From: Minisyncoccota bacterium
Lineage (GTDB): Bacteria; Patescibacteriota; Microgenomatia; UBA1400; PJMF01
Length of the DNA: 64,000 bases
NCBI GenBank assembly: GCA_012515515.1
Contig: JAAYYE010000013.1
Span: 2,293 to 66,292, forward strand
Direction of reading: 5' to 3'
Shown here piece by piece: positions 1 through 53,769 of this stretch. Below the pieces are notes generated by a model. It had not been told where the DNA came from, ran no database searches, and was given only the letters and a program-made list of their open reading frames with translations. A program made the position numbers and the translations under genes. Numbering within the stretch: position 1 is the first letter of the stretch; every line of letters starts with the position of its first letter.

Positions 1-3000
1 TAGAATAATTTTCCAACGCTCTGACATTATCTCCCATTGCTACGGAAGCAGTTCCACGAGCTTCGGAATTTATACCTATTACAGCGGATGCGTTTCCATA
101 CCCAGAATTATTTTGTCCTATTGCTATAGAATAATTTCCAAATGTTCTGACATTATTTCCCCCTAGTATAGAGTTATTTCCATATGAGAAGTTGTTTTCT
201 CCCACAAACAAATTTCCTGTAGTTTTAGCATCACCAGTAGCACCATCAGCTATAAATTTAGCACTAGCGGTACTATCACCACCGACATAGAGATTAAGAC
301 TAGTATTGGTGGGGGATAAACCTTGATTCTCTAAGTCCCAGTAATTAGTGCCTAGTGAAGCAGCACTAGTCCAAGAGAGATTACCAGACCCATCATTAAC
401 TAAAGCTGTGCTAGCAGCTCCCTGACTACTGGGCCAGGAATAGGCTACATTATTAATCCTAGTTAAATTACCACTACTATCTACTCTAAATTGAGAACTA
501 TTACCTACTGAGAGTAAAGCTAAAGGATTAGTGGTACCGATACCTACATTAGTATTGTTATTAAATAAGTTACTTGAATAAGTCCAACTACTTCCATTCC
601 AGTAAATAGTTTGACCAGCTAAAGTGCCTGTTGGTAGAGCAGTGCCAGTATCATCAACACCCCAATAACCTCTGCCTGATCCATCACTCTTCCAAACTTG
701 TCCATTAGTTCCAGCAGAGTCAATAAAGTATTGACCATAATCTAGTCCTAACATTCTATAAGTACCAGTGGTGTTGATATCGCCAGCTACATCGAGGAGA
801 TATGTGGGAGCAGTATTGCCGATGCCAAAATTACCCGTATGGGTTAGAGTGGCCAGTTCAGTATAAGCAGCTACGGCTGTCCCATGACCTCCATATAAAA
901 ATCTTAATCTACCAGAGGTATCGCTGCCTGATGTGGGTAATGTTTCCATAGAGAAGGCGACGGTGTTGGTTGCGCTACTGGCTGTATTCCAGGCTGTGCC
1001 TCTCATGGTTAGTCTTGGGGAAGGGCGGACTGGGATAGCAGCGGTGGCTGAACCGGCGGTGGTAATAAGGCCTTCCACAGGAGCAGTGGGGGTGCCGCTT
1101 CTAGTCGAAGTTACCGAACTGGTAAATGAACCGCTGGTACCAGAAATTGATCCACCCACTGATAATGCCGTTGGTATCCTGGCTGTATTAGTCTCGGTAG
1201 TTACAAGACTGATGGTTCTCGCTTCAGAATATCGTCTAGCATAAGCGTTGGGCTCTAACTGAGCTCCCCAGGCGATAACAGTATTCTCGCCTACTTCCAA
1301 AGTAACACTTTTGTGGGTATTAGGGTTAGAAAATTTTTGAGTAACCGCATATCTTTGCCAAGTTTCATTGATCTCTACAGACTTTCTAGTTCCACTCTCT
1401 GTATCACTATCTATTTTTAGACCAACTGTAGCAGTACCGCTGTTTGTTTTTAAATAGATGCTAAACACCCAGTCACCTGTAGCATCCACCCCTGCTGCTG
1501 AGGTGGCAACAGTTTGGACTAGTTTTGACCCAGCACTATCGCCAACAATGGTGTCAGCGGTTGAAGCACTCTCTAGGGGAGCTGAGTGAGTATTGGCAGT
1601 AACAGAGGTAATATTAGTTCTCACCCAATCGCTAGCGCCATTTCTTTGAAATTCTTCGGTATACCTTAGAAAGTTTTGATAATAACCAGTTTTAATCCAA
1701 GGAGATTCAATGGCTCCCATGGTGGTAGTCGATTCAGTAGGGATGGAAACAATCCCCGCATATCTTTTTCCACCAATTTCAATGAGGCCGGCGCCCAAAG
1801 GAGATTCAACAAGGATATCTTCAAAGTGGCCAGTGCCTTGAACTTGCAGTTTATGTGTGGGGCTAGTTGTGCCAATCCCAATATTTGTGCCATCGTTATA
1901 TAGTAGGGAATTAGCTACCCAGGTAGTGCCATCGTGTCTTAAAGTTTGACCACTAATGCCTGTTGGTAGTAAAGCTGGTGACAAATCTGTCCAGACTGGG
2001 GCTGCTCCCGCACCTTGACTTTGTAGATAATAACCACTGCTACCAGCATCACTATTTGCTCTCAAAGCTCCTGTTAGATTAATATCACCAGCGACATCTA
2101 ATTTGTATAAAGGATTAGTTGTGCCAATCCCAATATTACCTGTTCCTGCCTGGATAGTCATTCTACTAACATTGTTAGTTCTTAACCAAAAATCATGATT
2201 GGTCATTGATCCGGCAAAAGCTCCACCAGTCGTGGAAGTGCCCATAATAAATTCAATGTCGTTTGTTACATCTCTACCAAGAAAATAGGCTTTTCCAGCC
2301 CCTTGAACGGCAACAGCGGCATTTTGTGAAGAAGCAATTGCTGCTGAGTTTTCTGGAGTCACCCCGCTTTGAGTAAAAAGAGCTAACCAATTGCTGCCAA
2401 CAGCTGAACCAGCAGTGTGCAGGGTACCGCTAGGGTCAGTTGCTCCTCCGATCCCCACATTACCTGTTCCATCTGGGGACAAAATGATGTCACCATTACC
2501 ACCACCTTGGGTTTGGATCATGATTGAATTAGCTTCAATCGTCAAGTCGCTACCTGAGACGGTTTTAATTTCTGGATCATCGGTGCCAAGGACTAATTGT
2601 CCCTGGTCATTAAGCATTAGCAAAGTGCTGTGAGTGGCAACGAGGCTAGGGCGTATGCCTTGCACAGTTTCAGAATTAATGGCATAAGCAACTGTACGAA
2701 TTGGTTGTCTGGGGCTAAGCACTTCAGCACTAGGGGCCGTACCGACTGATACCTCGAGCCAAACATTGCTATTTTCGGTAAATACACTGTCGTCAATAGT
2801 GCCACCACAATCTAGATCATCACTGCCATCCCCGTTGCCAGCTCCTAAGTTGGTGCTAAAAATTCCATCTTGATCTGGCAGTATGGCACAAGTATTTGAA
2901 GACCAAAGTAAATTGCCACCCGTCACATCATCATAAAGGGCATAGGTCATATCAGTTTCAGCGGCAATGGGAGTGCGGGCGGTGTTGGTCAAGCGTCCCT

Positions 3001-3820
3001 GGAAAGAGAGAATCCGATTTGGATTGGTAGGTAGGCTCGGATAAGCAAGTGACAGGACCGCTTGACCGAATTGTTGATAGGCTAGATAGCCTAGGCCGCC
3101 AATAAAAAATAATAATGCAATAATATTTAAAATAAGGCTTAATTTATTTGGTCGACGACGAGCTGAACTATCGGCTTCTTTAGCTCTGCCGAACCAGTTT
3201 CGCTTTTTCTTTGCTTCTTGACTAAGTTTTGCCGAATCTTCGTCTTTTAGTGCTTGATTTTCTTTGGCTAATAATTGTTGAGCCAGTAATTGCTGGGTTT
3301 TTATTTCTCGATCTTGAGCTTTTCTTAAATCAATGGCTCTTAAGTCAAGACTTGAGGCATTGGCTACCTGTTTTGAACTAAGGGGAATTTCTGACTTGAG
3401 TAAGCCCTCAGCTTTTAGCCAGTTTTTGAATTGACCAATGCCAACAATTTTGCGTTTAATTGAACTATCTTTAAGACCCTTTTCCCTCTGGTATTTAGCA
3501 AAAGCTAGTAGTTTGGGTTTGCTTCCCAAAGCATCCAAATTGCTTTCACCTAGAAAATTTAAAAATTGCTTGATATCACTTTTGTAATTGCGAATGGTAG
3601 CAGCTGAGCAGCCAGTATTTTTGACTGCCAAAAGGTAGTCATTGAGATTTTTTTCGATCTCTTTTGTGCTATTGTTGGCATTTTCTTGCAAATTTTCTGT
3701 TTGTTCGGCTTCTTTAACTGAGTCGTTTTGCAAAAGTTCCAAGAACTTTTTCTCAGCTAAAGCCATTTTTGCTTGTTTTTGCACTTCACGGCTAGTATTT
3801 TGCTTTATTTTGGCAGGCAT
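1..3820 (-). CDS. Giant surface protein, partial (C-terminus beyond window start). N-terminal tyrosine-recombinase core-binding (SAM-like) domain, one TM helix, then long Gly/Thr/Ser/Asn-rich extracellular region with tail-fibre-like repeats and a YadA-head-like repeat at the window edge.
   Basis: Hand translation of the minus strand from ATG at about 3818-3820, with an in-frame stop at 3860-3862 upstream, gives an ORF open to position 1. N-term ...LNDYLLAVKNTGCSAATIRNYKSDIKQFLNFL...IKRKIVGIGQFKNWL resembles the XerC/D core-binding domain. Hydrophobic segment LSLILNIIALLFFIGGLGYLAY. Repeats of the type N(I/V)GIGTT(N/S)P...KL(D/Q)V(A/Q)G. Terminal NSILGGNNV...YSIAIGQNNSG...ASAVIGINS is Hep_Hag-like. 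The ORF track does not list it because it runs off the window. Confidence 0.6.
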   Translation of the reverse strand, partial: MPAKIKQNTSREVQKQAKMALAEKKFLELLQNDSVKEAEQTENLQENANNSTKEIEKNLNDYLLAVKNTGCSAATIRNYKSDIKQFLNFLGESNLDALGSKPKLLAFAKYQREKGLKDSSIKRKIVGIGQFKNWLKAEGLLKSEIPLSSKQVANASSLDLRAIDLRKAQDREIKTQQLLAQQLLAKENQALKDEDSAKLSQEAKKKRNWFGRAKEADSSARRRPNKLSLILNIIALLFFIGGLGYLAYQQFGQAVLSLAYPSLPTNPNRILSFQGRLTNTARTPIAAETDMTYALYDDVTGGNLLWSSNTCAILPDQDGIFSTNLGAGNGDGSDDLDCGGTIDDSVFTENSNVWLEVSVGTAPSAEVLSPRQPIRTVAYAINSETVQGIRPSLVATHSTLLMLNDQGQLVLGTDDPEIKTVSGSDLTIEANSIMIQTQGGGNGDIILSPDGTGNVGIGGATDPSGTLHTAGSAVGSNWLALFTQSGVTPENSAAIASSQNAAVAVQGAGKAYFLGRDVTNDIEFIMGTSTTGGAFAGSMTNHDFWLRTNNVSRMTIQAGTGNIGIGTTNPLYKLDVAGDINLTGALRANSDAGSSGYYLQSQGAGAAPVWTDLSPALLPTGISGQTLRHDGTTWVANSLLYNDGTNIGIGTTSPTHKLQVQGTGHFEDILVESPLGAGLIEIGGKRYAGIVSIPTESTTTMGAIESPWIKTGYYQNFLRYTEEFQRNGASDWVRTNITSVTANTHSAPLESASTADTIVGDSAGSKLVQTVATSAAGVDATGDWVFSIYLKTNSGTATVGLKIDSDTESGTRKSVEINETWQRYAVTQKFSNPNTHKSVTLEVGENTVIAWGAQLEPNAYARRYSEARTISLVTTETNTARIPTALSVGGSISGTSGSFTSSVTSTRSGTPTAPVEGLITTAGSATAAIPVRPSPRLTMRGTAWNTASSATNTVAFSMETLPTSGSDTSGRLRFLYGGHGTAVAAYTELATLTHTGNFGIGNTAPTYLLDVAGDINTTGTYRMLGLDYGQYFIDSAGTNGQVWKSDGSGRGYWGVDDTGTALPTGTLAGQTIYWNGSSWTYSSNLFNNNTNVGIGTTNPLALLSVGNSSQFRVDSSGNLTRINNVAYSWPSSQGAASTALVNDGSGNLSWTSAASLGTNYWDLENQGLSPTNTSLNLYVGGDSTASAKFIADGATGDAKTTGNLFVGENNFSYGNNSILGGNNVRTFGNYSIAIGQNNSGYGNASAVIGINSEARGTASVAMGDNVRALENYS

Positions 3821-4310
3821 TAATTTTTCGAGCTTTTTTACTTGTCTAACCCAGATGAGTTAGACAGTTTTTTAGCTTCGTATTTTTTAATCTTATTTAG
3901 TCTAGATAAGGACTCGAACCGAAACAAGCAGCAATTTTTATTCGGGTTTTCATCGATTGAATAAAATATTCACACCAGGCGGAACTACTATATATAGGGG
4001 GCTGTTATTTCACTAATTTTCATGCTAAACAAAGCATAATAAAAGTAGTCAAAGCCTATCAGCAGTCAAAAAGGCAGTTTTCATTATCCCCAAAACAATT
4101 CACAAAATTGCTAGTTGTGAATTTACTTAGCAATGTAGTATTATGTGAAGTAGTATTTAAAAATATGGGTTTTAAGGGGGTTGTCTCTTGAGTAAAATAA
4201 TTTTTTCTTGTTTATTTTGCTCAAAAAAACCAGTTCGGGTTCAAAAAAATGTGGAAAAGTCAAAATTTGTATTTTAAAGCTCAATTTATATTAATGAATT
4301 TATTACAATA

Positions 4311-5075
4311 ATGAAAGAAAATACTCGAAAAATATTGCTATTCTTGTACCCAACTGAGCGATCCTCACCAGATACTCCAGACGAAAAAATTTTACTAAAC
4401 TTTCAACAGATTAGATTTCTATTACCTGACTTGTCTTTGACTGGCTTGCAATCATTACTCTTTTATTTAGAAAAAAGAGAATTGCTGATAAAACATTTCT
4501 TAAACAACGAAGCCCACTATAGCTTGACTAATTATGGCCAAGAGCAGTTAGAAAGGCAGTTTCCGGCTCTTTCTATTGCGCGACGCAATTGGCAAGGTCG
4601 CTGGACAATGATTTTGTTTTTAGAGGCAATCAAAACTGATCAAAATTTTCGTTACTTGCGAGGGTTTTTGCTAAAAAATGGCTGCTTAGCCCTTAATCGT
4701 GGGGTGTTTCTTTATCCTGGTCAATTGAGTGAGTATATTTTAGTCGAGTTGAACAGTCGTTATCGCCAGGCTGTGTTGGTATACGAGTTGGGTGAGTGTA
4801 TTGTGGGTGACGAGCAAATTACTATAGGACAGAAAATTGCCATAAATGACAGTTTAAAAGTTTACTCTGGTATTAGCAAAGAGCTTAACCAACTGATAGA
4901 CATTATTGGTTCAAGAAAAAAACTAAACAATCAGCAAAAAGTGGACTTTTATTCGATTTATAATCGGTTCATTAGCTTTTTGGCAGAAGATAGTGGTATC
5001 ACTGAACACTATTTCCCTCAAGTAGAAGGAGCATTAATAATCCTCTCAAAGCTACAAAAACTGCTCAAAATATAG
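4311..5075 (+). CDS. Hypothetical protein, possible PaaX-like winged-helix transcription regulator
   Basis: 254-aa ORF divergent from the giant surface gene. N-terminal region LLFLY...LTGLQSLLFYLEKRELL is reminiscent of PaaX-type wHTH. Similarity is weak and judged by eye. Confidence 0.3.
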   Translation: MKENTRKILLFLYPTERSSPDTPDEKILLNFQQIRFLLPDLSLTGLQSLLFYLEKRELLIKHFLNNEAHYSLTNYGQEQLERQFPALSIARRNWQGRWTMILFLEAIKTDQNFRYLRGFLLKNGCLALNRGVFLYPGQLSEYILVELNSRYRQAVLVYELGECIVGDEQITIGQKIAINDSLKVYSGISKELNQLIDIIGSRKKLNNQQKVDFYSIYNRFISFLAEDSGITEHYFPQVEGALIILSKLQKLLKI

Positions 5076-5580
5076 GATTTTGGGTTGTCTTCGTTTTAAT
5101 TCCTAAAGTTTCGCCTGGCTTTTGCCTGGTTAATTTAAAGAAAAATTGCCCTTGTACAGCCATTTATTTGCCAAATTTCGCAAATATTTTGGGTATAAAA
5201 TATTGTCTTTCAGCAATTTGGGTAGTAGTAAGCGAACTAATTACCCAAAGCAGATTGATTGTTTAGGATATATTTATATTACCGAAACTAGGTTTTGCGG
5301 TAATCCTTATACTTGATTATGCGGTAATAATGCTTTAAATATGCTTGAATATCTCTTTGCTTAATTATTATATTCTTTCGTGATAACTTTGCTTAATTCT
5401 TGGTTTTTTGTCCTTAGTTTTGGGTGTTTTTTTTCGATTATTTTAATTATCTGGTTTTTTGGCTTCGGTATATTTTTGCTTCAATTGTTTTTATTATATT
5501 TTCTATTTTTTACTAGTTTTTAAATATCTTATGGGATTTTAGCGTGAACTCTTTCTTAATGTCTTTATTTAAGTTAAAAT

Positions 5581-8436
5581 ATGTTTATGTCAAATGTTTT
5601 TTATGATCATCAAGCGATTGAAGAAAAGTGCTTGAGTTATTGGGACGAATTAGCTTTGTTTCAGGATGTCAATCTAGATTTAACGCCAAGTGACTTAGCT
5701 AAAAAAAGTTTTTTACTGTTTGCCTTCGTTTATCCTAGTGGGTCTGGTTTACATGTTGGCCATATTGAATCTAAAACCGCCCTTGATATTTTGGCTCGTT
5801 TTCAACGGATGAAGGGTCAGCAAGTTTATTTTCCAGTTGGCTGGGATGCTTTTGGTTTACCTGCAGAGAATTATGCGATCAAAACCGGCATTCATCCAAG
5901 TCAGACGACTAAGACAGCCATCGACACTTTTCGCCAGCAAATCAAGCGTTTAGCGATCTCTTATGATTTTGCCAACGAGCTGGCTACTAATGATCCAGAT
6001 TATTATCGCTGGACACAGTGGCTATTTTTGCAGCTACATCAAAAGGGATTAGCTTATCAGAAGCAGGGTCGAGTCAATTGGTGTCCAAGTTGTCAAACAG
6101 TCTTGGCCAATGAGCAAGTAGTTAATGGCTTGTGTGAACGTTGTGGGAGTGAAGTTGTCCAGAAAGATCTCAAACAATGGTATTTTAAGATTAAGGCTTA
6201 TCAAGATGAGCTGATCAGTGGTCTTGATGGTTTAGACTGGCCGACTGCCACCAAACAACAGCAGCTCAATTGGATAGGCCGACACGAGGGCGTTAATATT
6301 ACTTATCCAGTTTATGCTTATCCAGATGATGGGAAGAGTTTGGCTGATGGGGGAAATAGTTTGGCCAATGAGGGAAATGACTCGGCTGAAGAGGGGAGTA
6401 GCCTGGCTGAAGAGCAGCTTAATCAGGGTGAGGACACAGGAGCCAGTCGGGCGGGTGAGATTACCTGTTTTTCCAGCCGGCCAGATACTAATTTTGGCGC
6501 AACTTTTGTGGTCTTGGCGCCCGAGCATGCTTTGGCCAAGCAAATTGCAGAAAAAAATGAGCTAGTGGCGGAATACTTGGCTAAGGCAGAGAAAAAAACG
6601 GAGCTCGAGCGCCAACAAGAAGGCAAGCAGAAAAGTGGTGTTTTTACTGGTTTTTATGCTTTTAATCCTTTAAGCAAACGACGAATGCCAATTTGGGTGG
6701 CTGATTTTGTCTTAGCTAATTATGGCACTGGCGCGGTAGTTGGCGTGCCAGCCCATGACAAACGAGATTTCGAATTTGTAGAATTTGCCAATCGGCAAAA
6801 TCCTCGAGAACCCTTGTCGGTGATTCGTGTAGTGAGTGGCCCAGATGGCAATCAGGACGAGATTACTCAAGTTGAGCAAGTTTACAGTGGGGAAGGCCAA
6901 TTAATGAATTCAGCTTTTCTCAACGATTTAAGCGTGCCAGAAGCGATTGAGACAATGATCGATTATCTCGAGGAAAAAGGCTATGGCCAGCGCACAGTAA
7001 ATTATCAATTACGAGACTGGTTAATTTCTCGACAACGCTATTGGGGAACACCGATTCCCATTGTTTATGATCCAGAGGGCAATGCTCATCTGGTTAAAGA
7101 AGAACATTTGCCTTGGACTTTGCCAGACGATGTTGATTTTAAACCGACTGGTGAATCGCCCCTTAAATCTTCAAAAGAATTTCAAGAACGGGTGGAACGC
7201 CTATATGGCAAAGGCTGGACTCCTGAGTATGACACCATGGACACTTTTGTTGATTCGAGTTGGTATTTTTTGCGCTACTGCGACAGTCACAATCAGCAAG
7301 CTTTTGCTGATCCCCAGCGTTTGGAACAGTGGTTGCCGATTGATCTTTATTTAATTGGTCCAGAGCACATTGTTTTGCACTTACTTTATTCGCGCTTCTT
7401 TACTAAATTCTTGCGAGATGAAGGCCATTTAAAAATTAGCGAGCCTTTTGCCAAAATGCGTCACCAGGGCATGATTTTAGGCCCTGATGGTCAAAAAATG
7501 AGTAAGAGTAAGGGTAATGTGATTAATCCAGACCAAATAGTCGATCAGTATGGGGCTGATACGCTGCGGATTTATGAAATGTTTATAGGGCCACTTGAAG
7601 CTGATAAGCCTTGGGATGATCGAGCAGTTGCTGGAGTGGCTCGTTTTTTGCGTAAGTTATATCGTTTGGCAGTTGAGGAAATAGAGCTAATTGCTGAATT
7701 ATGGCCAGTGCTGGATGAAGAAAATAATGGCAATGGCCAAGCTGGAGGAAATAACCAAGCTGAGCTGAGCAGCCCTGAATTTGTGGGGAGAAAAGCCTTA
7801 GTGCAAAAATTGCAGCAAACGATTAAAAAACTCAGCGAGGATTTGCCTAAGTTGAAATTTAATACAGCCATTGCCTCCTTAATGGAATTCAACAATGTTT
7901 GGGAAAAAGCGAGTTTATCGAGGAATAGGCTTAAGACCTTGTCAGAAGAGAATGCTTCATCGAAAAGCACTTTCCACACCCCCTACCTATTGTTAAGTGC
8001 AGAGGAATTACTAAAATTAATAGCCATATTAGCCCCACTAGCGCCATTTTTAAGTGAGGAGCTATATGGACAAGCCAAGTATGCCTGGCAGAATCTAGCC
8101 GATCAGACTCTTGGAGAAATCAAGTGTGAAACAGGAGAAGCGCGAGCGCGCCGGCAAGCACTGGAAAGCCTGGAGTTTGCTGCCTCAATTCATTTGACGA
8201 CTTGGCCGACTTATGATCCCGCGCTCGCGCAAAGTGAGCAAATCACGCTGGCAGTGCAGGTCAACGGCAAAGTTCGCGCAGAATTAAAGCTTGATTATGA
8301 CTTGATCAACGATCAGGCCACAGTTCTAACTCAAGCCAAGGCTTTGCCGGCTTTAGAAAAATGGTTGCTGGGCCAGCAAATTATCAAAGAAATCTATGTT
8401 CCAGGTAAAATTGTGAATTTGGTGCTGGCTGCTTAA
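5581..8436 (+). CDS. leuS: Leucyl-tRNA synthetase
   Basis: 951 aa. Class I HIGH motif (HVGH) and KMSKS (GQKMSKSKGNV). Overall LeuRS-like sequence, including CP1-editing-region features. Confidence 0.9.
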   Translation: MFMSNVFYDHQAIEEKCLSYWDELALFQDVNLDLTPSDLAKKSFLLFAFVYPSGSGLHVGHIESKTALDILARFQRMKGQQVYFPVGWDAFGLPAENYAIKTGIHPSQTTKTAIDTFRQQIKRLAISYDFANELATNDPDYYRWTQWLFLQLHQKGLAYQKQGRVNWCPSCQTVLANEQVVNGLCERCGSEVVQKDLKQWYFKIKAYQDELISGLDGLDWPTATKQQQLNWIGRHEGVNITYPVYAYPDDGKSLADGGNSLANEGNDSAEEGSSLAEEQLNQGEDTGASRAGEITCFSSRPDTNFGATFVVLAPEHALAKQIAEKNELVAEYLAKAEKKTELERQQEGKQKSGVFTGFYAFNPLSKRRMPIWVADFVLANYGTGAVVGVPAHDKRDFEFVEFANRQNPREPLSVIRVVSGPDGNQDEITQVEQVYSGEGQLMNSAFLNDLSVPEAIETMIDYLEEKGYGQRTVNYQLRDWLISRQRYWGTPIPIVYDPEGNAHLVKEEHLPWTLPDDVDFKPTGESPLKSSKEFQERVERLYGKGWTPEYDTMDTFVDSSWYFLRYCDSHNQQAFADPQRLEQWLPIDLYLIGPEHIVLHLLYSRFFTKFLRDEGHLKISEPFAKMRHQGMILGPDGQKMSKSKGNVINPDQIVDQYGADTLRIYEMFIGPLEADKPWDDRAVAGVARFLRKLYRLAVEEIELIAELWPVLDEENNGNGQAGGNNQAELSSPEFVGRKALVQKLQQTIKKLSEDLPKLKFNTAIASLMEFNNVWEKASLSRNRLKTLSEENASSKSTFHTPYLLLSAEELLKLIAILAPLAPFLSEELYGQAKYAWQNLADQTLGEIKCETGEARARRQALESLEFAASIHLTTWPTYDPALAQSEQITLAVQVNGKVRAELKLDYDLINDQATVLTQAKALPALEKWLLGQQIIKEIYVPGKIVNLVLAA

Positions 8437-8548: not shown

Positions 8549-9217
8549 ATGAAGCCAAAACATTTTCCTAAACGTCTTTTTTACTTAATATTTCGTTTTT
8601 TACCTGCTTGCCTGATAATTGCTGCCATGATCATCATTAAGCCGGCTTTAGAGTCTTTGCGCGCTTCGGCAGAGAGTTTGGAGTGTTACTGTCCCAGTTG
8701 TCCAGAAAACTTATTGCCTGAGTCAGGATTACAAGCTTTGGGCCAGATTAAAGCAGAAATTGCGGGAGCGGTCAAAAAACCCGGTGTTTATGAACTAACT
8801 TTAGGGCAAAGGCGCGCCGATTTGCTGTCAGCGGCTGGCGGTCTAGATCCAGAAGCTTCTTTAGTACATATGGTCAAGAGTTTTAATTTGAGCACGGTAG
8901 TTGCCGATGGCGAAAAAATTTATATTCCTTATGCCTGGGAAGAGCAATGGCAGTTGCAAGCGATCAATAATACGGAGGATTCATCTAGTGGGCTTAGTAA
9001 TAGCACAACAAGTCAGGACAATAACGAGTCTGCAAGTGCTTTAATCTCGATTAATTCAGCTAGTACAAAAGAACTGCAAACCTTGCCAGAAATAGGGGAA
9101 AAGCGGGCCCAAGATATTATCGACAACCGACCTTACGCCAGTCTTAATGACTTGCTAAATAAAAAAATAATTAGTCAAAAAATTTACGAGACAATTGAAA
9201 AGTTAATTAGTTTGTAA
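8549..9217 (+). CDS. comEA: Competence protein ComEA-like (TM anchor, SLBB, helix-hairpin-helix DNA-binding)
   Basis: N-terminal TM helix. C-terminal STKELQTLPEIGEKRAQDIIDNRPYASLNDL matches the ComEA HhH motif. Confidence 0.65.
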   Translation: MKPKHFPKRLFYLIFRFLPACLIIAAMIIIKPALESLRASAESLECYCPSCPENLLPESGLQALGQIKAEIAGAVKKPGVYELTLGQRRADLLSAAGGLDPEASLVHMVKSFNLSTVVADGEKIYIPYAWEEQWQLQAINNTEDSSSGLSNSTTSQDNNESASALISINSASTKELQTLPEIGEKRAQDIIDNRPYASLNDLLNKKIISQKIYETIEKLISL

Positions 9218-9365
9218 AATATTATAAGATTCTCGATGCCTAAAAGGCAGCAAAAACGAGTAGTCTTGTTGCTAATAAATCAGCAAAAATACGACATAAA
9301 ACAAGAAAAATCTTTAAATTTTAAAAAGTTTTAAGCAACTAGCACATTTTGCATCAATACTAGGC

Positions 9366-10730
9366 ATGACTTATAAAGAAATACATAAAATAAAAAGAAA
9401 TCTTTTGATATTTTTAATTATATTGATATTAATGCAAAATTTTAAGTTAATATTAAACACCCGAAACAAGCCATTTTTCCCGATAATAATCCAAAAAAAA
9501 AGAGAATATTCGCAAAATAAGTCGAAAAACGAAAATATAGCGAAAAGTGCTATTGATGCAGGCGAGTGTATTGGGGATTTAGCGTCTTTTCTAGGCGTTT
9601 TACCTCGAGCTAGAGAGTATTACAAACATATACAAAACATATCAGCTAGCAAGGTAAATGTTCAAGTGTTAGAGATTGCTGGGAGTGTAAAAAGCTTTAT
9701 GAATGGCTTAAAAGTCTTAGTCTCTCTTCTTATCAATTCGTTAAAGTATCGGTTTTTTATCTTTAAAAATTTTGCTGTAATTATGCGGGAAAAGCTTATC
9801 TGGCTACTTGAGGAGAATTTCTCTTCTCGAGAAGCTACTCTGGGCAAAGCTTTTGTCTTCGCTGACCTGTCTAGTGCTCCCGAGAGCATCTATCATTCTT
9901 TTAAAGTTATAGGGATATTGCACTTAGTTGCCGCTTCTAGTGCTAATATATACCTAATTTTGGATTTTTTCCAGCCCCTATTTTTTCCACTTGAGTATTT
10001 ATTTGGTCAAAAGTGCCTTTGTTTTGCTAAAATAGTTTTGGTCATTGCTTATTTTATCTTGATAAATGGGCATTTTAATCTTATTGACTCCAGTCCTTCA
10101 ATACTAAGAGCTTCGCTTTCCGTTATTTTAATTCTTGCTGCCGCTTCTTTCTTCAATTTAGCTTTTAATCGGCTCAATGTCTTATTGCTGGTTGGCATAT
10201 TATGCCTACTCATCAATCCTTTATATATACAATCCTTAGGCTTTCAATTAAGTTTTTTAGCGAGTTACATCATTCTTTTTTACTGGCCATTTGTGCAGAA
10301 AAAGCTTGGCAAATCAAACATTATTCTAAATAGTTTAATCCAAATTCTGATGTGGCCGCTCTTACTTTTTTATTTTGCTGATATTAATTTAATTGCTATA
10401 CCAGCTAATATTATAGTTACACCTCTGGTAGAGTTTTTAACGGTCTTATATTTTTTATTTATTTTTCTTAAAAACCTTCGTTTGGCTTTTTTGCCTGATT
10501 TTATTGGTAGTTTGATATACAAAGCGTGTAATATATTTTTTCAATTATTAGCTAATCTAGAGAAATTGCCGGCTAAGGCCATTCAAATTAATGACAATAA
10601 ATACTGGATAATTAGCTCTTTATTCCTTATTCACTTAGTCTTAATGTACTTGATCTTACGTGATAAAAAATTAACCAATCAAAAAAACAAATATAGGATA
10701 TTCGCTAAATGGAGCAATTGGCAGGCCTAA
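9366..10730 (+). CDS. comEC: ComEC/Rec2 membrane channel portion (DUF4131 + Competence domain), encoded separately from the MBL domain
   Basis: Polytopic membrane protein. GILHLVAASSANIYLILDF resembles the ComEC Competence-domain signature (GLxHLLAxSGLH). Stop overlaps the start of the next ORF. Confidence 0.6.
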   Translation: MTYKEIHKIKRNLLIFLIILILMQNFKLILNTRNKPFFPIIIQKKREYSQNKSKNENIAKSAIDAGECIGDLASFLGVLPRAREYYKHIQNISASKVNVQVLEIAGSVKSFMNGLKVLVSLLINSLKYRFFIFKNFAVIMREKLIWLLEENFSSREATLGKAFVFADLSSAPESIYHSFKVIGILHLVAASSANIYLILDFFQPLFFPLEYLFGQKCLCFAKIVLVIAYFILINGHFNLIDSSPSILRASLSVILILAAASFFNLAFNRLNVLLLVGILCLLINPLYIQSLGFQLSFLASYIILFYWPFVQKKLGKSNIILNSLIQILMWPLLLFYFADINLIAIPANIIVTPLVEFLTVLYFLFIFLKNLRLAFLPDFIGSLIYKACNIFFQLLANLEKLPAKAIQINDNKYWIISSLFLIHLVLMYLILRDKKLTNQKNKYRIFAKWSNWQA

Positions 10731-10731
10731 T

Positions 10732-11709
10732 ATGAAAAAATCATTAGTTTTTCTTCTTTTTATCTATTTTGCCTGGCAATTTCTTGTAAAAATGCCTGAT
10801 AAATCAGCCTATTTAATTGTATGTGATGTTGGACAGGGTGATGCGATTTTAATTCAGCAGGGTTTTTTTCAAGTCCTAATTGATACTGGCCCAGACGAGT
10901 CGGTGACCAGCTGTTTAGAGAAACATCTGCCTTTTACTGATAAAAAGATTGATATATTAGTTTTAACCCATTATGATAGCGATCATATTGGCGGTTTTGC
11001 AGCTATTGCGAAGCAGTACCAATTTGCCAACATTTTTGCTCCCCTAAGTGATTATAAAGAAAGTGAGGTTTTTCTCGAGTTAAATGAGCTATTTTCGCAG
11101 ATGATAATGAATGGAACTAGGGTGAAACAGCCGATTTTGGGGCAACAAATAGCTTATCGGGATTCTAGCCTGGAAGATTCAGCTCCCAGCATCTTGTTGA
11201 CTTTTCTAACTCCCGCTTTTCTCGAGTATGACTTTTTAGAAAATATCAATTTTTTCCAGGAGGAATCCAGGCTACCCGAAACCCTCTTATCGGCCGATAA
11301 TCCGAAAAACTTGGCCAATTCTTCAAGTACAGAAAGCACAAATGACCGATCTATCGCACTATTAATGGAATATGGGCAGTTGCGGGTTTTCTTGCCTGGT
11401 GACCTTGAGGAGGGCGGAGAACTTAGCATTCTGCACTCGGCTCTGATAGATCGAGTAGACATCCTAAAAGTAGCGCATCATGGGTCAAAAACATCGAGTA
11501 GTGAGCTGTTTTTGTCTCAAGTACTACCCGAAATGGCTATAATTTCTGTGGGTAAAAAAAATAAGTTTAATCATCCCTCACCAGAGGTTTTAGCCAATTT
11601 TCAAGCTATTTCTAGCCAAATTGTGCGTACCGACCAAAATGGGGAGGTCAAAATCAAATTATTTAAGGATCATTTCTGTTTTTTAAACAAAAAGAACAAC
11701 TTTCTGTAA
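10732..11709 (+). CDS. comEC: ComEC C-terminal metallo-beta-lactamase domain protein (separate ORF)
   Basis: MBL motif LVLTHYDSDHIGG (HxHxDH), and later KVAHHGSK. Immediately follows the ComEC membrane ORF (TAATATG junction at 10728-10734). Confidence 0.6.
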   Translation: MKKSLVFLLFIYFAWQFLVKMPDKSAYLIVCDVGQGDAILIQQGFFQVLIDTGPDESVTSCLEKHLPFTDKKIDILVLTHYDSDHIGGFAAIAKQYQFANIFAPLSDYKESEVFLELNELFSQMIMNGTRVKQPILGQQIAYRDSSLEDSAPSILLTFLTPAFLEYDFLENINFFQEESRLPETLLSADNPKNLANSSSTESTNDRSIALLMEYGQLRVFLPGDLEEGGELSILHSALIDRVDILKVAHHGSKTSSSELFLSQVLPEMAIISVGKKNKFNHPSPEVLANFQAISSQIVRTDQNGEVKIKLFKDHFCFLNKKNNFL

Positions 11710-42014: not shown

Positions 42015-44012
42015 TTAATCGCCAGGATGATATCCTGGCTCAATGTTTTGTTGGGCAGTTTCGGCTCTCAAATTTTGACCAAATTTTGTTGTTGCGGGTT
42101 TTAAATCAATTAAGCCCACCAGTTCGTGAGTAAGATTGCCTGACCACAAAGCTCCTAGATCTGTTCGACCCTTTTTTTTGTACAAAGCAGCTAAAGCTTT
42201 AATGTTTTCTAAAATGCGTCGGCCAATTAGCTTGTAAGCTTCAAGTGGGCTGTTGGCACTTATCAATGATTGAATATAATTTTGAAACTCCTGTTCATTG
42301 TATTGTGGCGAGCCAATTAGTTCGTGAAATTTTAATAAGGAAATAAACCAATCTTGTTTATATGCTCCCCACTGGTCTTCAAAACTTATGTTTCGTAACA
42401 GCTCGGTGGCTTGTCTTTCCAGCCACGAGATGGCCATGATGTGATTTGGCTCAATGCCGATCACTTTTTCCTCCATCATTGTGCTTAATTCTTGGTTTAG
42501 ATAGTTGATTGCGTTTGCCAAGACCTCTTTATTGCTCAAAACTCCATTTATTTTAGCTTGTTCTAGTGTTTGCAATTGTTGGTTTAATTCTTTGTCAGAG
42601 GTTGTGGGTGGGAAGTCTGATACCGGTTTGGTGTTTTCTGCCAATCTTCTCAGGACATCAATAGGTTTTACTTTTTTTCTACTTGCGTTTCTTTCTTCAA
42701 TTTCCATTTCATATTTTTCTTTGTTAAACAACAGCTGGATTCGTTCTGCTGAATTAAAATAATCAGCTTTGGGAATTACTTGTTCTAATTGAGATTTATC
42801 ATTAGTATCGTAATAATGAAGCATTGAGGTAATCAGCTCATTCACGTAAGGGCGTTGGTCGTGGATGCAGTCTCGTAAGATACCAAATGGTTTTGCCATT
42901 ATTAGGCCGTCTAATCGATTTTGCTCCAATTTAGCCAAACTTGTGGCTGGGACCTCCCTAGCTGCAAGTAATAATTCATTGAGATTTTCAGAAGATACTT
43001 GACTGGCATAAGCGTGACAAAGATAATCGCCAACCCCAAAATCTCCACGCCTCATTCCCCAAATATTGCCACTTTTTAAAAGAATTTCGACCTGAGGATC
43101 ATTATTTTGCATTGCGGGAAGCAAGCGATCTATTAATCCTCGTAATTTTTCTGCCGTTAAATCATGATTTCTGGTATAACTTGATATTGCCTCAGCAAAC
43201 TTTGCTCCAATATCTCTATCAAAATAATTAGCAACTTCTTTGTAAATCTGTAGCATTAATTTGATTTGATCTGGATTATTAGAGTATAGACCGGATTGAG
43301 TGGCGCCACTCATAAAATTTTTGTCCAACTCATCTTTTGGTCGTTGAGCTGTAACTAGATAATGATGTTCATAAAGCTCAGAAAAGGCATTAAAAAAATT
43401 GATAAATTCTTCAGGTTTTTTTGCAGTTGGGCGTGAGTATCTATTAGACCCAGATATTTCAATTAAAACTTTTTGAAAATCTTGCACCCTTTCTTGAGCC
43501 GTTGGCTCATCTATTTCGCTCATAAATTTTGATTTCCATTGGCTCGCTAAGGATTGGTTAAATTTTGCTTGATCTGCAGTAGCACAAACCCCCGTCCACT
43601 GCCTCATGTTTGCAGGGGTTAATTCGCTTTGAGAAGGAAGAATGCTGATGCTTAAGTCGCGAAGCGCTGTAATATATTCAGCAAAATCTTGATCAGAAAT
43701 TTCTTTTTGAGTAATGTTGAAAATTAAATTTTGTTTATCACGTTTAGTTTTAGACAGCCTTAAACTTGCTTCTTCTTTTTCTTTTTCATCAAGTTGATCG
43801 ACTGGCTTTTGCTGATTGTGTGCAATTTCTTCGTATTGTTGCTCTAAAGTTTTGTCAGGAAAAATAGCATCCACCTGTGGTTGAACGATTGCTGTCCGCA
43901 ATTGAGTCTCTTCTAGAATTTTAAGATCTTCAGCGGTCCATTGAAATAATGTTTCTTTATCGTTATTATTATTAGTTGGTTGGGGTTTAGCTGTTTCTGC
44001 TGGTTGTTGCAT
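42015..44012 (-). CDS. Hypothetical large protein (665 aa)
   Basis: Long ORF 20 nt upstream of the 41329..41994 ORF, in the same orientation. No motif recognised. Confidence 0.45.
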   Translation of the reverse strand: MQQPAETAKPQPTNNNNDKETLFQWTAEDLKILEETQLRTAIVQPQVDAIFPDKTLEQQYEEIAHNQQKPVDQLDEKEKEEASLRLSKTKRDKQNLIFNITQKEISDQDFAEYITALRDLSISILPSQSELTPANMRQWTGVCATADQAKFNQSLASQWKSKFMSEIDEPTAQERVQDFQKVLIEISGSNRYSRPTAKKPEEFINFFNAFSELYEHHYLVTAQRPKDELDKNFMSGATQSGLYSNNPDQIKLMLQIYKEVANYFDRDIGAKFAEAISSYTRNHDLTAEKLRGLIDRLLPAMQNNDPQVEILLKSGNIWGMRRGDFGVGDYLCHAYASQVSSENLNELLLAAREVPATSLAKLEQNRLDGLIMAKPFGILRDCIHDQRPYVNELITSMLHYYDTNDKSQLEQVIPKADYFNSAERIQLLFNKEKYEMEIEERNASRKKVKPIDVLRRLAENTKPVSDFPPTTSDKELNQQLQTLEQAKINGVLSNKEVLANAINYLNQELSTMMEEKVIGIEPNHIMAISWLERQATELLRNISFEDQWGAYKQDWFISLLKFHELIGSPQYNEQEFQNYIQSLISANSPLEAYKLIGRRILENIKALAALYKKKGRTDLGALWSGNLTHELVGLIDLKPATTKFGQNLRAETAQQNIEPGYHPGD

Positions 44013-46357: not shown

Positions 46358-46407
46358 TGGTTTTATTGTTTCTCCCAAACAATTGGTTTTATTGTTGTTC
46401 CCAAACA
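46358..46407. repeat. Tandem pair of 25-nt hairpin-forming repeats between convergent genes (probable bidirectional terminator). Second copy overlaps the giant gene stop.
   Basis: GGTTTTATTGTTTCTCCCAAACAAT and GGTTTTATTGTTGTTCCCAAACAAT. Each contains ATTGTTT...AAACAAT inverted arms. Confidence 0.45.
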
Positions 46408-49400
46408 ATATTCATATCTTTGAGTTTGTAATTGGGACTATAAGAAAATATTTTTTCTTCTTCAAAACTAAAGGCTTTATTTATTTGCCGTACCCTTTCG
46501 TCCATAGCTTTTTCAAATTTTCCTCCGGTACGATTGGTTCTAATTGCTCCATTTTTTGATAATAAAATTTTATTAAAACCATTGTTTTTAGCAAAAGTTT
46601 CCAAAACTTTCATCAAGCCATTAAACATCGATGCTTCATCTGTAGAGTAGAGGAAAGTGCTAGAAGGATTTAGGGAAGCGCTGAGCACTTTTTCTCCTTT
46701 TTCCTCAAAATGATGTAGCAATACTAATCCAAGACAGCGATTAGTATCGGGATCTTGTAAAACGAGCTGAAAATAGTTCTCACTATCCCACATGTTTGGT
46801 TTTTGTTGTTCTGGACTTTGATTGGCAAGGGGGTTGTCTTGGCTTACACAAACTCCGCCCACCATTCTGGCATTAGCACTTTCCTTAGTTTTGGAAAAGA
46901 AGCCATTGATTACTTGTCTTTGTTTACCAGATTCGCTTTCAAATTTTGCCAACTCAGTTTCTAGCAGATTTTGTTCATCGGCAAATAAATTGACAAATCT
47001 TAAAGCAGTCAGGGCTTGAAATTGTTCTTCGTCATATTCGCCAGTATCGATTTTGGCTAAAGAAAGGGCTAAATCTTCCAAACTAGTATCGCCTAAACGA
47101 AATTCTTGCAAATTTAGGGAGTTTCCAGTTAGAGTTTCAACGGCCTCCATAGTTTTAGTTCTTTGAGCTTTGACCTGCCCATAAAATGCCCTAGTGCTGC
47201 TTTTTTCTGAAGTGCTATCAACACTTAAACCTTGAGTTAAATTTTCATAATAAAGAATTAATTTTTTGATAGTTTCCGGTGGATATTTTTTACCCATTCT
47301 TTTTTCGATAGTGCGACTGATTTGTGCAATAAAGCTGTCACTCATTCCCAAACGGTCAAGTCTAAACCTATTACTTTGATCACTCAGTTTTGCTTGAGCC
47401 TGTTCTTGAACAATTTTTGCAAAATATTCTTGCATTCTCTCTTTTAGCACTTGGTTTTCCCATCCAGCTTTGACTAAACGCCGATTGACCTCCTTAATCC
47501 GATCAGTAAAAAAACTGTGTAATTCACACATTAGGGCATATTCTTGATTGGAAGCTTGACTAACTCGATCAGTAGTGCCTTGGATGTAATCTCTAACATC
47601 TTCAAACAAAGCAAATTCATAACGCAAAATTAAGTCTTTTAACTCCTGATGGGGGACGGTTTTATCGGTATAAACAGAATCAGCTAAAAGAATAAACATT
47701 TTTTCGTCTAAAGTGTTTAATTGTTTAAGATCAAGATTTTTTAAACCACCCGCAGCCAATTTGTTTTCTAACAATGCATCAACTTTTTCTTCCAACTCTG
47801 TTTGAATTTTTTCTAAATCAAAGCTACTGGCTTTCATTTCCTCTGCCAAAGTTAAAATAGGTTTTTTCAGAGACTCAATAGCTGGCTCATTGATTACTTC
47901 ACCTTCTTTGACTTTAATTTTTGCCGCTGCCAACAAATCAATTTCATATTTTTGATCATAAGTAAACTGAGTTAAATCGGCAGTTCTGTCAACACAAGCT
48001 TTAGTTTTTGCCAAACCTCCCCAGTTTCCAGCATTATTAGGATAAACCGCTTTGAGCAGGTCATTGTAAAAGAGTTTTTGTCTATCTTGTTCAGGAATCG
48101 GTTCCGAGCTGATCATTTGGCTGCCTAGTTGTTGTAATTCTGCAACATAAGCCTCTTCTAAATTTCTCGCTTCAGCTTTTAAATAACCTTCAGCAATTGT
48201 TGGACTTAAAACTCTAAATTTTTGTGTAAAATTTAAAATTTTATTTCTATTTTCACTAGTAATGATACCTGCTTTTATACAAATCACATATTCGTCCAGA
48301 ATAGTTAAAGTTTTTTTACCATGAATCCCAATAAACCTGCTTAAAAATTTTAAATCTTCAGCATTGTTGGCAATATCTTTACCGTGATTAAAGATAAATA
48401 GTCTGAGACTTGCTTGGTCTTTATTAAAAAGATGGGGTAGAATTTTTATATAATCATAAGAAAGTTCGGGTTGAATTTGTCCTTGGCCAACTGCTTGTAA
48501 AACTTCCATGGAAATTTCCTGATCAGAATTGTTTTCAAGACATGTCTGATAAAATTTTGTTAAAAATTGTAGGCCCTCGTCGCTGACAAAATCAAATTTT
48601 GGACTACTTATGAGTATCAAGTGATCTTTATTTAGTAATTTAGGAGCATGTTCATAAAAATTTAAGGCGTTATTTTTAGAAAGTTTGCCATCCACCACAC
48701 TAGATAAAATTTTAACTAATGCTTCAGCATTGCTTGCTTGTGTACTGTCGCCATACTTGTCATCAAACTTTTGATAAAAATCCATACCTGATTTATTAAA
48801 AAAATATGGCAGTTTGTGTTGGAAAAATTGAAACTTCCGCCAATTCTTATTATTATTTAAACAAGGATATGAGTCATAAGCGTCAGCAAGAAAGTTTAAG
48901 TCTTCGATAGAGACCGAGTGCTTTCCACCACAGCTACCCACAATACCTATGAAGTCATAAGAAGTTAAAAACGAGAGTTTTTTTGGATTATCCTGATTTT
49001 TTTCCCACAACTCTGTTAAATATAGGAAAGTTCTAAGATTAGTTAATAAATCTAAATATTTATCACTTTGAGGATCGGCATTATTCAAGTTCTTTAAAAT
49101 ATTTCTAAATATATCTTCCCAATTTAGTAAATTCATTCTAATCTCATGGGCTTCTATTATTGATTCTAGATTGTCGTCATCAACTTGACTAAGTGTCAAC
49201 ACAAGATTGGATGCTCGTTGATAAGCCAAAACATCTTCTTGGCTAAGAATACCCTTAGTAAACGTTTCAGCAACTAGCGTATCATTGGTTAAAGAGTTTC
49301 GAGCCATTGTTCTTAAGCGATCGTCCTCAGATTTATCATCATAAATTCGTTTAGCTAATTGCGAGCTTGTTTCTTTAATATTTGGGTAGTTTTCGTATTC

Positions 49401-53305: not shown

Positions 53306-53309
53306 TTTC

Positions 53310-53495
53310 TTATTCTTTTAGTAATTTAGATTCATTGGTGAATCTGTTAATTGATATTTTTTTGAGAATTTTTTTACCCCGCTTGGTGTCAAAATGAATG
53401 ATTTTTAATTTTTGTTTTTTATTAATAAAGCGAAATTGACGTAATTTTAAATCTACAGTATATTTTTCAAAAGTTGGAAGCTTTGTTATTGCCAT
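53310..53495 (-). CDS. Hypothetical small basic (Lys-rich) protein
   Basis: 61-aa ORF MAITKLPTFEKYTVDLKLRQFRFINKKQKLKIIHFDTKRGKK... Start codon abuts a perfect palindrome. Confidence 0.3.
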   Translation of the reverse strand: MAITKLPTFEKYTVDLKLRQFRFINKKQKLKIIHFDTKRGKKILKKISINRFTNESKLLKE

Positions 53496-53525
53496 TGTAA
53501 CTATTTTTTAAAAAAATAGTTACAA
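53495..53525. promoter_or_regulatory. Perfect 31-bp palindrome (15-nt arms), putative operator
   Basis: TTGTAACTATTTTTT-A-AAAAAATAGTTACAA, followed by an extra GTTACAA half-site copy at about 53530-53536. Confidence 0.4.
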
Positions 53526-53588
53526 TTGTTGTTACAAATTAAAAAAATCACTTGCTGCATTTAATGTAAACTTATTCTAATTAATTTC

Positions 53589-53747
53589 TCACCCTCTCTC
53601 CCAATCCAATTCATCAATTAAGCCCTCGGCATTGTCTAGGTCACCTAGGTCAATTAATTCCTCGATTTCAGCACTTTCGTCATCTGTTAGCAGCTCTTCT
53701 ATATCCCCAAGCCTTGATGTCAGCTCATCTTGTCTTTCTACATCCAT
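53589..53747 (-). CDS. Possible small highly acidic protein (52 aa), not in the ORF track
   Basis: Hand translation gives MDVERQDELTSRLGDIEELLTDDESAEIEELIDLGDLDNAEGLIDELDWERG*. Divergent from the DUF2779 gene. Could be non-coding. Confidence 0.25.
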   Translation of the reverse strand: MDVERQDELTSRLGDIEELLTDDESAEIEELIDLGDLDNAEGLIDELDWERG

Positions 53748-53769
53748 TCTTTAATTATATAATCAAGTT

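Follow-up and report, generated by a model that had tools for sequence, protein, structure and literature searches.

A predicted recombinase core-binding domain heads a large Patescibacteria family of giant fiber-like proteins

Why should a giant, fiber-like surface protein begin with a domain derived from DNA recombinases? This question is raised by the first gene of a 64,000-nucleotide stretch (here called the window) of contig JAAYYE010000013.1, which belongs to a Minisyncoccota genome assembly of the Patescibacteria (GCA_012515515.1), from an ultra-small, Pacebacteria/Woesebacteria-like member of the Microgenomatia. The original prediction, made from the sequence of this stretch, held that the N terminus of the protein resembles the core-binding (SAM-like) domain of tyrosine recombinases and that this module was co-opted as the cytoplasmic end of an adhesin- or fiber-like protein. 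Profile searches and a structure model identify the N-terminal domain as a core-binding fold, and the fusion is not peculiar to the source genome but defines a large Patescibacteria family. We propose, with a probability of roughly 60%, that the protein is a regulated, membrane-anchored host-recognition fiber that carries the recombinase-derived domain in the cytoplasm (i.e., with the N terminus inside and the C terminus outside).

The giant gene lies on the minus strand, where a single open reading frame (ORF) runs from position 3859 to base 2 and leaves the window and the contig at their edge; the plus-strand reading of positions 1 to 3900 was rejected, being full of stops and without a long ORF. 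The ATG at 3820 is the earliest start codon past the upstream in-frame stop, and the window holds the 5' 1273 codons from there (2..3820, minus strand), i.e., the N-terminal 1273 amino acids (aa). The protein opens with MPAKIKQ, and since close homologues have the common N terminus MPAKI(P)K, the SAM-like region is placed inside the protein; this N terminus and the ATG at 3820 speak against a true start downstream of that region. The full-length gene, which was to be obtained from the flanking DNA, could not be recovered from this contig; in a 95%-identical orthologue (L007), the analysis covered the first 6.7 kb of the gene. A database protein (P0001; Candidatus Pacebacteria; 2037 aa; labeled "site-specific integrase, partial") is 100% identical to the window protein and extends it, and is itself partial, cut by a contig end, so that this contig and P0001 both end inside the gene. 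Near-identical internal modules (up to 87% aa identity) are probably behind the assembly break. The G+C content of the fiber gene (1 to 3820) is 42.9%, versus 37.1% for the whole window. Comparisons were extended to two complete orthologues, P0002 (2084 aa) and P0004 (2144 aa).

The identity of the N-terminal domain was supported by the profile search that had been set beforehand as its check. In Pfam, PF02899 (Phage_int_SAM_1) matched aa 62 to 139 with 35.2 bits (gathering score, 22.3; E = 1.5e-8), and three sister SAM models also matched, more weakly. The XerD, XerC, and XerA equivalogs of NCBIfam matched only over model positions ~1 to 95 of 263 to 300, with 26 to 40 bits against cut-offs of 220 to 335. 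An AlphaFold model computed from a 19-sequence alignment placed four or five helices across aa 56 to 137 (predicted local distance difference test [pLDDT], 87 to 95), and the 16 best Foldseek matches of the model in the PDB were all N-terminal domains of tyrosine recombinases, including archaeal XerA (4a8e; probability, 1.0; 85 residues; root mean square deviation, 3.5), Cre, integron IntI, Tn1549 Int, and Brujita Int. The E values of these matches were weak because the model also holds long single helices. In the alignment, the family-invariant residues N78, Y79, S81, D82, R123, and F131 make up the core-binding signature NYxSD...R...F. The predicted fold had been located in the first roughly 100 aa; its identity stands, while its position is to be moved to aa 56 to 145 (3386..3655, minus strand), a four-helix domain.

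This domain is basic (16 K/R versus 8 D/E in aa 61 to 145), as are its counterparts in the family (n = 208; mean net charge, +5; 93% positive), and tandem duplication of it occurs in ~15 to 30% of family members. It is preceded by a Lys/Glu-rich helix and followed by a long Q/K/E/A-rich cytoplasmic helix, a possible coiled coil (aa 153 to 210; 3191..3364, minus strand), as seen in the AlphaFold model and in comparison with homologues; in other members, the linker between the SAM-like domain and the membrane is variable, of low complexity, and 80 to 200 aa long. As predicted, no catalytic domain follows. PF00589 had no match at E ≤ 1 in the 1273-aa window protein and was absent at E ≤ 0.01 from P0001 and P0002, and no catalytic-domain family was detected in the window protein, P0001, P0002, or P0004. 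Since it has no catalytic domain, the giant protein cannot recombine DNA. In a separate observation, residues 21 to 101 of PDB entry 9i5v chain 14 (i.e., a 401-aa ribosome-associated chain named "RaiA") matched the SAM-like profile at E = 1e-3, which would be a further non-recombination setting of the domain.

How widespread is this fusion? The same architecture, when sought elsewhere, was found in more than 150 distinct protein clusters, almost all from Patescibacteria, and therefore is neither a chance nor a one-off fusion. A word-indexed search returned 81 relatives of 700 to 2200 aa, most with precomputed SAM-domain matches; those with names come, with few exceptions, from Woese-, Pace-, Roizman-, Shapiro-, or Levybacteria or "Patescibacteria group." When the N-terminal module served as the query of an exhaustive profile search, 11,311 representatives (i.e., clusters at 50% identity) were recovered at E ≤ 1e-3, of which 1455 reached E ≤ 1e-10 and 155 reached E ≤ 1e-30. 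Family members are up to 7697 aa long, and in several of the 78 top representatives of at least 1000 aa, the SAM-like domain is duplicated in tandem. Scanning GTDB with one genome for each species added 140 relatives, nearly all in Patescibacteria assemblies, with two copies in two genomes. Our literature searches turned up no account of Patescibacteria surface proteins that bear a SAM-like domain, or of this architecture. The papers on Vampirococcus and Strigamonas say of the giant proteins of candidate phyla radiation (CPR) predators only that they are membrane or surface targeted, and a paper on giant genes makes general statements on giant surface proteins only. The fusion appears to be the domestication of a DNA-recombination module, which we could not find described.

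The source annotations of the relatives read "site-specific integrase, partial" and "site-specific recombinase XerD," and the label "integrase" is functionally wrong. Since the family is mislabeled and PF02899 widely serves as a marker of mobile elements or prophages, these genes will swell the numbers of integrases, prophages, and mobile elements that are counted for CPR genomes. Taxon labels around the family also call for care. The record CP011212.1 ("candidate division TM6 GW2011_GWF2_28_16, complete genome") carries a typical family member at positions 1 to 6899, with the N terminus MLAKIPK, a SAM domain, a transmembrane helix, and LSYQGRL, at 40% G+C; this end of the record is probably a chimera or Microgenomatia contamination, since the bin name implies ~28% G+C. 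Dozens of metagenome-assembled genome (MAG) records titled "uncultured Pseudomonadales bacterium" among the loci L007 to L086, and single records titled Methylococcaceae, Limisphaerales, and Vitreimonas, likewise carry a Patescibacteria-type locus. Isolate names such as HK-STAS-PATE-15 suggest that the taxon labels of these MAG records are wrong.

Where does the domain sit relative to the membrane? The giant protein has one strongly hydrophobic segment (aa 229 to 247; 3080..3136, minus strand; Kyte-Doolittle value, 2.32), which is spanned by an AlphaFold helix at aa 226 to 252 (pLDDT, ~95) and conserved in the family. The 20 residues that precede the helix carry a net charge of +4, compared with 0 for the 20 that follow, and Lys makes up 14% of the sequence ahead of the helix and 1% of that behind it, which is rich in Gly, Ser, and Thr. 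Family ectodomains average a net charge of -4 in 90-aa windows. A family-conserved G(Y/F)xQF motif with an invariant Y248 directly follows the helix. Exactly one transmembrane helix was counted in 68 of the 78 top representatives, a count that depends on our own hydrophobicity threshold. The charge bias, the opposite charges of the SAM-like domain and the ectodomain, and the apparent homology of the post-helix domain to a domain that follows a signal peptide in Bdellovibrio MAT fibers (see below) together argue for the N-in, C-out orientation and agree with the single helix that had been predicted. The helix would anchor the fiber in the cytoplasmic membrane. Between the helix and the ectodomain, A-[YFW]-P occurs exactly 12 aa before LSFQGRL in 114 of the 118 family proteins that have the latter motif (153 examined).

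The transmembrane helix and aa ~250 to 470 form the best-conserved part of the family, aligning in 66 to 68 of 80 homologues. This part includes an ecto-proximal, beta-rich domain (aa 267 to 387; 2660..3022, minus strand) with many invariant positions, the motif LSFQGRL...PDQDGIF...VWLEV...PRQPI..VAYA, and a pLDDT of 75 to 89 (aa 267 to 377); LSFQGRL stands ~45 residues past the helix in 70 of the 78 top representatives. The sole NCBIfam family matched by the domain was NF053851 (Bdello_MAT_N), which was hit by all 19 members searched (best E = 2.9e-9; model positions ~6 to 147 of 162), with every score under the cut-off (at most ~40 bits versus 60). A Foldseek search returned generic immunoglobulin-like folds only, and a monomer structure model of the ectodomain was confident for the proximal domain alone. 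As judged by profile comparison, the beta-rich domain appears to be remotely homologous to the N-domain of the Bdellovibrio MAT fibers.

Beyond this base, the ectodomain is built of repeated modules. The first tail-fiber-like shaft modules (aa 454 to 660; 1841..2461, minus strand) contain NVGIGG and NIGIGTTNP..KLDVAGDINLTG units, and more fiber modules (aa 997 to 1224; 149..832, minus strand) are 77% identical to aa 1917 to 2015 of the full protein. P0001 has eleven N[IVF]GIG units, five of them inside the window, and its ~95-aa modules start at aa 562, 997, 1346, 1583, 1820, and 1917, with mutual identities of 40 to 87%. PHROG tail-fiber families matched the shaft (phrog_9942, E = 2.4e-13; phrog_18345, E = 2.6e-7), in agreement with the tail-fiber-like ectodomain that had been predicted. 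The YadA-head-like units of the original prediction are a borderline case: SIAIG/SVAMG repeats are present, starting at aa 1225 to 1273 (2..148, minus strand) and running past the window, while PF05658 (YadA_head) scored 24.0 bits against a cut-off of 25 over aa 1231 to 1290 (E = 5e-5). A Peptidase_S74 domain (PF13884) is present in P0002 and P0004; in P0002 it lies ~520 aa away from the C terminus and is not terminal. In the family as a whole, the proximal part is kept and the distal part is mosaic. One lineage-specific insert (aa 690 to 950; 971..1753, minus strand), aligned by only 2 of 80 homologues and matching no family, is possibly a ligand-binding module. A PDB sequence match of aa 830 to 945 to a gamma-carbonic anhydrase (beta-helix; E = 0.014) was weak and was not used.

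Three kinds of surface fiber offer themselves for comparison. All 21 MAT fibers of Bdellovibrio bacteriovorus carry a beta-rich domain of ~130 aa directly after the signal peptide, which is presumed to lie at the predator surface and has no PDB homologue; the fibers are trimers with swappable tips and are divided between S74 and non-S74 subfamilies (Caulton et al. 2024, PMC10769870). Like them, the giant family has a predicted beta-rich base followed by a long mosaic fiber, with S74-bearing and S74-lacking members in both, and MAT fibers serve a bacterium which attacks other bacteria or attaches to them. In contrast, MAT proteins have an ordinary cleaved signal peptide and ~1000 aa, whereas the giant family reaches 2000 to 7700 aa and has ~160 to 490 aa of cytoplasmic sequence, one or two core-binding domains, and a transmembrane helix. 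Unlike the MAT arrangement, the window protein has 228 aa, including a folded domain, before its sole hydrophobic helix. The similarity is remote, and the organisms with the giant family are monoderm-like Patescibacteria. With phage tail fibers and tailspikes that bear an S74 chaperone, the family shares the PHROG-matched shaft modules and the S74 domains of P0002 and P0004, but the giant gene is chromosomal, in a housekeeping neighborhood, and its protein is N-terminally membrane anchored; its neighbors are a PaaX-like gene, leuS, comEA, comEC, pilins, obg, and rho, not virion structural genes. The likeness to YadA-type autotransporters, borderline by Pfam score, comprises the short head-like repeats. 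The YadA anchor (beta-barrel translocator) had no match in the complete orthologues P0002 and P0004 (the window protein is truncated), and the anchor of the giant protein is instead N-terminal and helical. Patescibacteria have no outer membrane. The closer relatives of the ectodomain are the Bdellovibrio MAT fibers and phage tail fibers, not the trimeric autotransporters.

The cytoplasmic side has its own precedents. The giant protein has the fold and signature residues of the core-binding domain in common with the tyrosine recombinases XerC, XerD, and XerA, from which it differs in having no catalytic domain and in carrying the domain tethered to the membrane and, in some members, in tandem. 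Its topology is that of ToxR, CadC, TcpP, and RsgI (i.e., an N-terminal cytoplasmic effector, one transmembrane helix, and an extracytoplasmic, ligand-binding C terminus), but the cytoplasmic part is a recombinase four-helix fold in place of the OmpR-type winged helix or anti-sigma domain of those proteins, and the extracytoplasmic part is a fiber of thousands of residues where they have a compact sensor. As far as we found, the combination of a giant fiber adhesin with such an unprecedented cytoplasmic module is undescribed.

Is the expression of the fiber under dedicated control? The original prediction suggested the divergent gene at 4311..5075 (plus strand) as a regulator. This gene encodes a putative transcription regulator of the PaaX family (254 aa), with a winged helix and a Cas2-like middle domain. 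Among its orthologues, 17 of 23 matched PF20803 (best E = 1.1e-20) and 2 matched PaaX_C, while the window copy alone matched PF20803 at E = 0.008; the family profile aligned to Escherichia coli PaaX (8a39; positions 21 to 235; E = 2.7e-5), and the first 80 residues resemble winged-helix proteins. The PaaX-like gene is divergent and lies 0.45 to 1.7 kb upstream of the giant gene in 77 of 80 GTDB loci; the upstream DNA of the other three is shorter than 600 bp, and the gene is therefore found in 77 of 77 informative loci. These features, with the conserved, motif-bearing spacer described below, speak strongly for the suggested role, and the PaaX-like protein would control expression of the giant gene through conserved operator-like elements.

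The divergent intergenic region (3821..4310; 490 bp) is more conserved than the flanking proteins: its column identity is 86% in a set of relatives in which the N-terminal regions of the proteins share only 61 to 72% identity. A motif, GTCTAAY-N2-3-ATCTGG, was present on the sense strand in 64 of 78 intergenic regions, compared with 3.2 expected from shuffling (maximum, 8) and 2 on the antisense strand, and was 27 times denser there than in the remainder of the loci. In an anchored comparison of the 78 loci, it lay a median of 45 nucleotides (nt) upstream of the called start. It is not coding, since it is kept whatever the reading frame and is followed by stops in several loci. In the window, it reads GTCTAAC-TC-ATCTGG (3851..3865, minus strand), 45 nt upstream of the ATG; this is the only exact copy in the window, where two-mismatch copies occur at about the chance level, and in L001, L002, and L004 a strong copy was again found only at the giant gene. 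Inspection of the anchored alignment placed a TAnACT box ~25 to 35 nt upstream of the motif across loci; its window copy, the -10-like TAGACT at 3899..3904 (minus strand), would belong to a promoter of the giant gene. Often, a further (G/A)TCTAA copy stands 10 bp upstream of the motif. Closer to the regulator gene, a perfect palindrome (TTCACAA-N9-TTGTGAA; 4099..4121) is a candidate operator, invariant in 15 close loci (arrangement A, i.e., comEC-comEA-leuS-PaaX) and ~190 nt upstream of the PaaX-like start.

The region is most simply explained as a promoter with one or more operators for the PaaX-like protein. The motif accompanies an adjacent PaaX-like gene and is missing from the clade in which that gene is not adjacent, which argues for the PaaX-like protein as its binder. 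The strand specificity of the motif also allows an element of the 5' untranslated region. In the clade of the window, the motif forms the left arm and loop of an inverted repeat or hairpin (3843-3866). A universal RNA hairpin is not supported, because the right arm is missing from most distant loci and the stems never vary; RNAalifold on six sequences met too little variation to judge, and an Rfam search of the intergenic region gave nothing meaningful (one snoRNA match; E = 0.75). In a metagenome scan with the exact 15-mer, most matches (111 of 120) were due to chance, and 9 of 9 family loci had the motif at the expected place; the scan added nothing on a wider regulon. A tandem form, (G/A)TCTAA-N4-6-TCTAA, occurred with 6 of 9 two-SAM-domain proteins versus 13 of 59 others (Fisher p = 0.011), a correlation that is only a lead because the loci are not phylogenetically independent.

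The wider neighborhood is also conserved. Divergent from the giant gene, the window carries the 254-aa gene, leuS, comEA, a comEC "Competence" gene, and a metallo-beta-lactamase (MBL) gene; comEA (SLBB plus HHH), the comEC "Competence" domain, and the separate MBL ORF occupy positions 8549 to 11709, and ComEC is thereby split in two genes. This order is kept in orthologous loci, where three type IV pilin genes with canonical N termini follow downstream of the giant gene (beyond the end of this contig), and, past them, genes for a TPR protein, obg, a LysM-M23 peptidase, and rho. In distant clades, the order is rearranged to comEA, comEC, MBL, PaaX-like gene, three unknown genes, a Big_1 gene, and the giant gene, and the comEA, comEC, and MBL genes stay near the giant gene even where the order differs (L003, L004, and L006).

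Some other genes of the window may be noted for themselves. The LeuRS-like ORF at 5581 to 8436 encodes 951 aa, versus 838 aa in L004, with an acidic, low-complexity insertion rich in Gly, Ser, Ala, and Glu at ~aa 250 to 295. A second giant ORF at 46389 to 50927 (minus strand; 1512 aa; TTG start) is acidic and of coiled-coil-like composition; it was rejected as a paralogue of the fiber gene, having no transmembrane helix, BLAST similarity, or Pfam match. Its neighbor at 42015 to 44012 (665 aa) also had no Pfam match. At 51443 to 55341, genes for a Schlafen-group-3-like DNA/RNA helicase (PF09848; E = 2.5e-92) and then a DUF2779 protein may be defense or mobile element related.

What, then, might the protein do? 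In the reading that we favor, the ectodomain would form a trimeric fiber for the recognition of host cells and attachment to them, with host specificity determined by its variable modules, as in MAT and phage tail fibers. The N-terminal transmembrane helix would hold the fiber in the cytoplasmic membrane, and the PaaX-like protein would govern its expression via the operator-like elements that are conserved in the intergenic region. Inside the cell, the basic domain derived from recombinases, held by a flexible or coiled tether of 80 to 200 aa, would bind nucleic acid at the cytoplasmic face of the membrane, with double-stranded DNA as the most likely ligand, and the DNA-bound domain would couple the fiber base, physically or by signaling, to the nucleoid. 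Of the claim that a DNA-binding recombinase module was co-opted as the cytoplasmic N terminus of an adhesin, the architecture is thus borne out by profile, predicted structure, and helix, while DNA binding keeps the status of a prediction. Several points weigh against our reading. The MAT-like scores do not reach the family cut-off; the prediction of trimer formation and surface exposure is an extrapolation from homologous sequences; and an isolated core-binding domain could equally be a protein-interaction module. Signal peptidase could cut at the A-(Y/F)-P ~12 aa after the helix, and the helix would then anchor the fiber only temporarily. Common descent, not functional coupling, may explain part of the synteny that is conserved in these related small genomes, and as binder of the motif, the PaaX-like protein is a candidate to which the evidence points.

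Other explanations of the domain need to be considered. The annotations would make the giant gene a partial site-specific or phage integrase of a mobile element or prophage or, in a variant, a degenerate integrase gene joined to an adhesin gene by a frameshift or assembly error, and the PHROG family phrog_1 ("integrase") does match the N terminus of P0002 (E = 2.6e-5). However, no catalytic domain was detected across 2037 to 2144 aa, the Xer models scored far under their cut-offs, the continuous ORF recurs in more than 150 clusters of independent assemblies, and the conserved chromosomal neighborhood (leuS, obg, rho, and comEC) is without phage genes; the integrase reading is effectively refuted and, in either form, extremely improbable. 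A stronger case can be made for a protein-protein module that, instead of binding DNA, docks a cytoplasmic partner (e.g., the PaaX-like regulator, a secretion or assembly factor, or the pilus and competence machinery encoded nearby) or acts as a folded stopper that keeps a force-bearing fiber from being pulled out of the membrane. The strict linkage of the PaaX-like gene and the conservation of comEA/comEC and type IV pilin genes nearby, even in a different order, fit this explanation, and membrane sequestration of regulators and RsgI-type single-pass anti-sigma factors are known precedents. It accords less well with the core-binding signature and net charge of about +5 that are kept across the family, or with the tandem duplication of the domain, which is more typical of DNA-binding modules; we consider it a tenable but somewhat unlikely account, whether as docking site or as stopper.

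The two remaining explanations concern what happens at the membrane. The SAM-like domain and helix might be a very long cleavable export signal: signal peptidase would cut at A|(Y/F)P and release a MAT-like fiber, which would then bind the cell surface via its N-domain, as in Bdellovibrio, where an ordinary signal peptide precedes that domain. The membrane would retain a stub of ~260 aa, made up of the SAM domain and the helix, that might be a factor in its own right, perhaps freed by intramembrane proteolysis and made one for one with the exported fiber. The near-invariant A-[YFW]-P places A at -1 and is preceded by S or T at -3 in 67 of the 118 proteins, and the apparently homologous MAT domain comes after a cleaved signal peptide (PMC10769870). 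However, the -3 residue is proline in 29 of 118. The -3/-1 rule of signal peptidase I disfavors proline at that position, and we know of no precedent for an n-region of ~230 aa that holds a folded domain; we therefore regard cleavage and release as unlikely. A ToxR-like or Notch-like transducer from contact to DNA would use host binding or mechanical pull to alter the oligomeric state of the SAM domain or to release it, the domain binding specific sites (possibly the GTCTAAY motif of its own promoter) and switching gene expression. The membrane-bound one-component topology (i.e., a cytoplasmic nucleic-acid-binding fold, one helix, and an extracytoplasmic C terminus), the gene- and strand-specific motif beside the promoter, and the greater frequency of the tandem motif with two SAM domains (uncorrected for phylogeny) are in line with it, but the motif follows the adjacent PaaX-like gene, pointing to the PaaX-like protein as binder, the SAM/motif correlation is small and phylogenetically confounded, and regulated proteolysis is without supporting evidence. 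Such outside-to-genome coupling, in which host engagement is passed via the helix to the DNA-binding domain(s) or releases them, with the GTCTAAY-ATCTGG element of its own promoter or incoming DNA of the ComEA/ComEC/pilus system as possible targets, thus seems decidedly improbable. If true, host contact would directly reprogram transcription or DNA uptake in an episymbiont, by a bacterial analogue of Notch/ToxR signaling built on a domesticated recombinase domain.

Very few CPR/Patescibacteria episymbionts have been brought into culture, and the way in which they locate and hold on to their hosts is an open question. With its MAT-like base, mosaic tail-fiber-like shaft, and variable modules, the family described here is a concrete candidate for predicting and testing host specificity. 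It is large, conserved, and readily recognized, with one or two copies per genome in the sampled loci, and it is also a source of systematic misannotation as "site-specific integrase" or "XerD." The PaaX-like regulator and the conserved motif offer a regulatory module in a group about whose gene regulation hardly anything is known, and the fusion to a recombinase domain raises a testable coupling of the cell surface to DNA.

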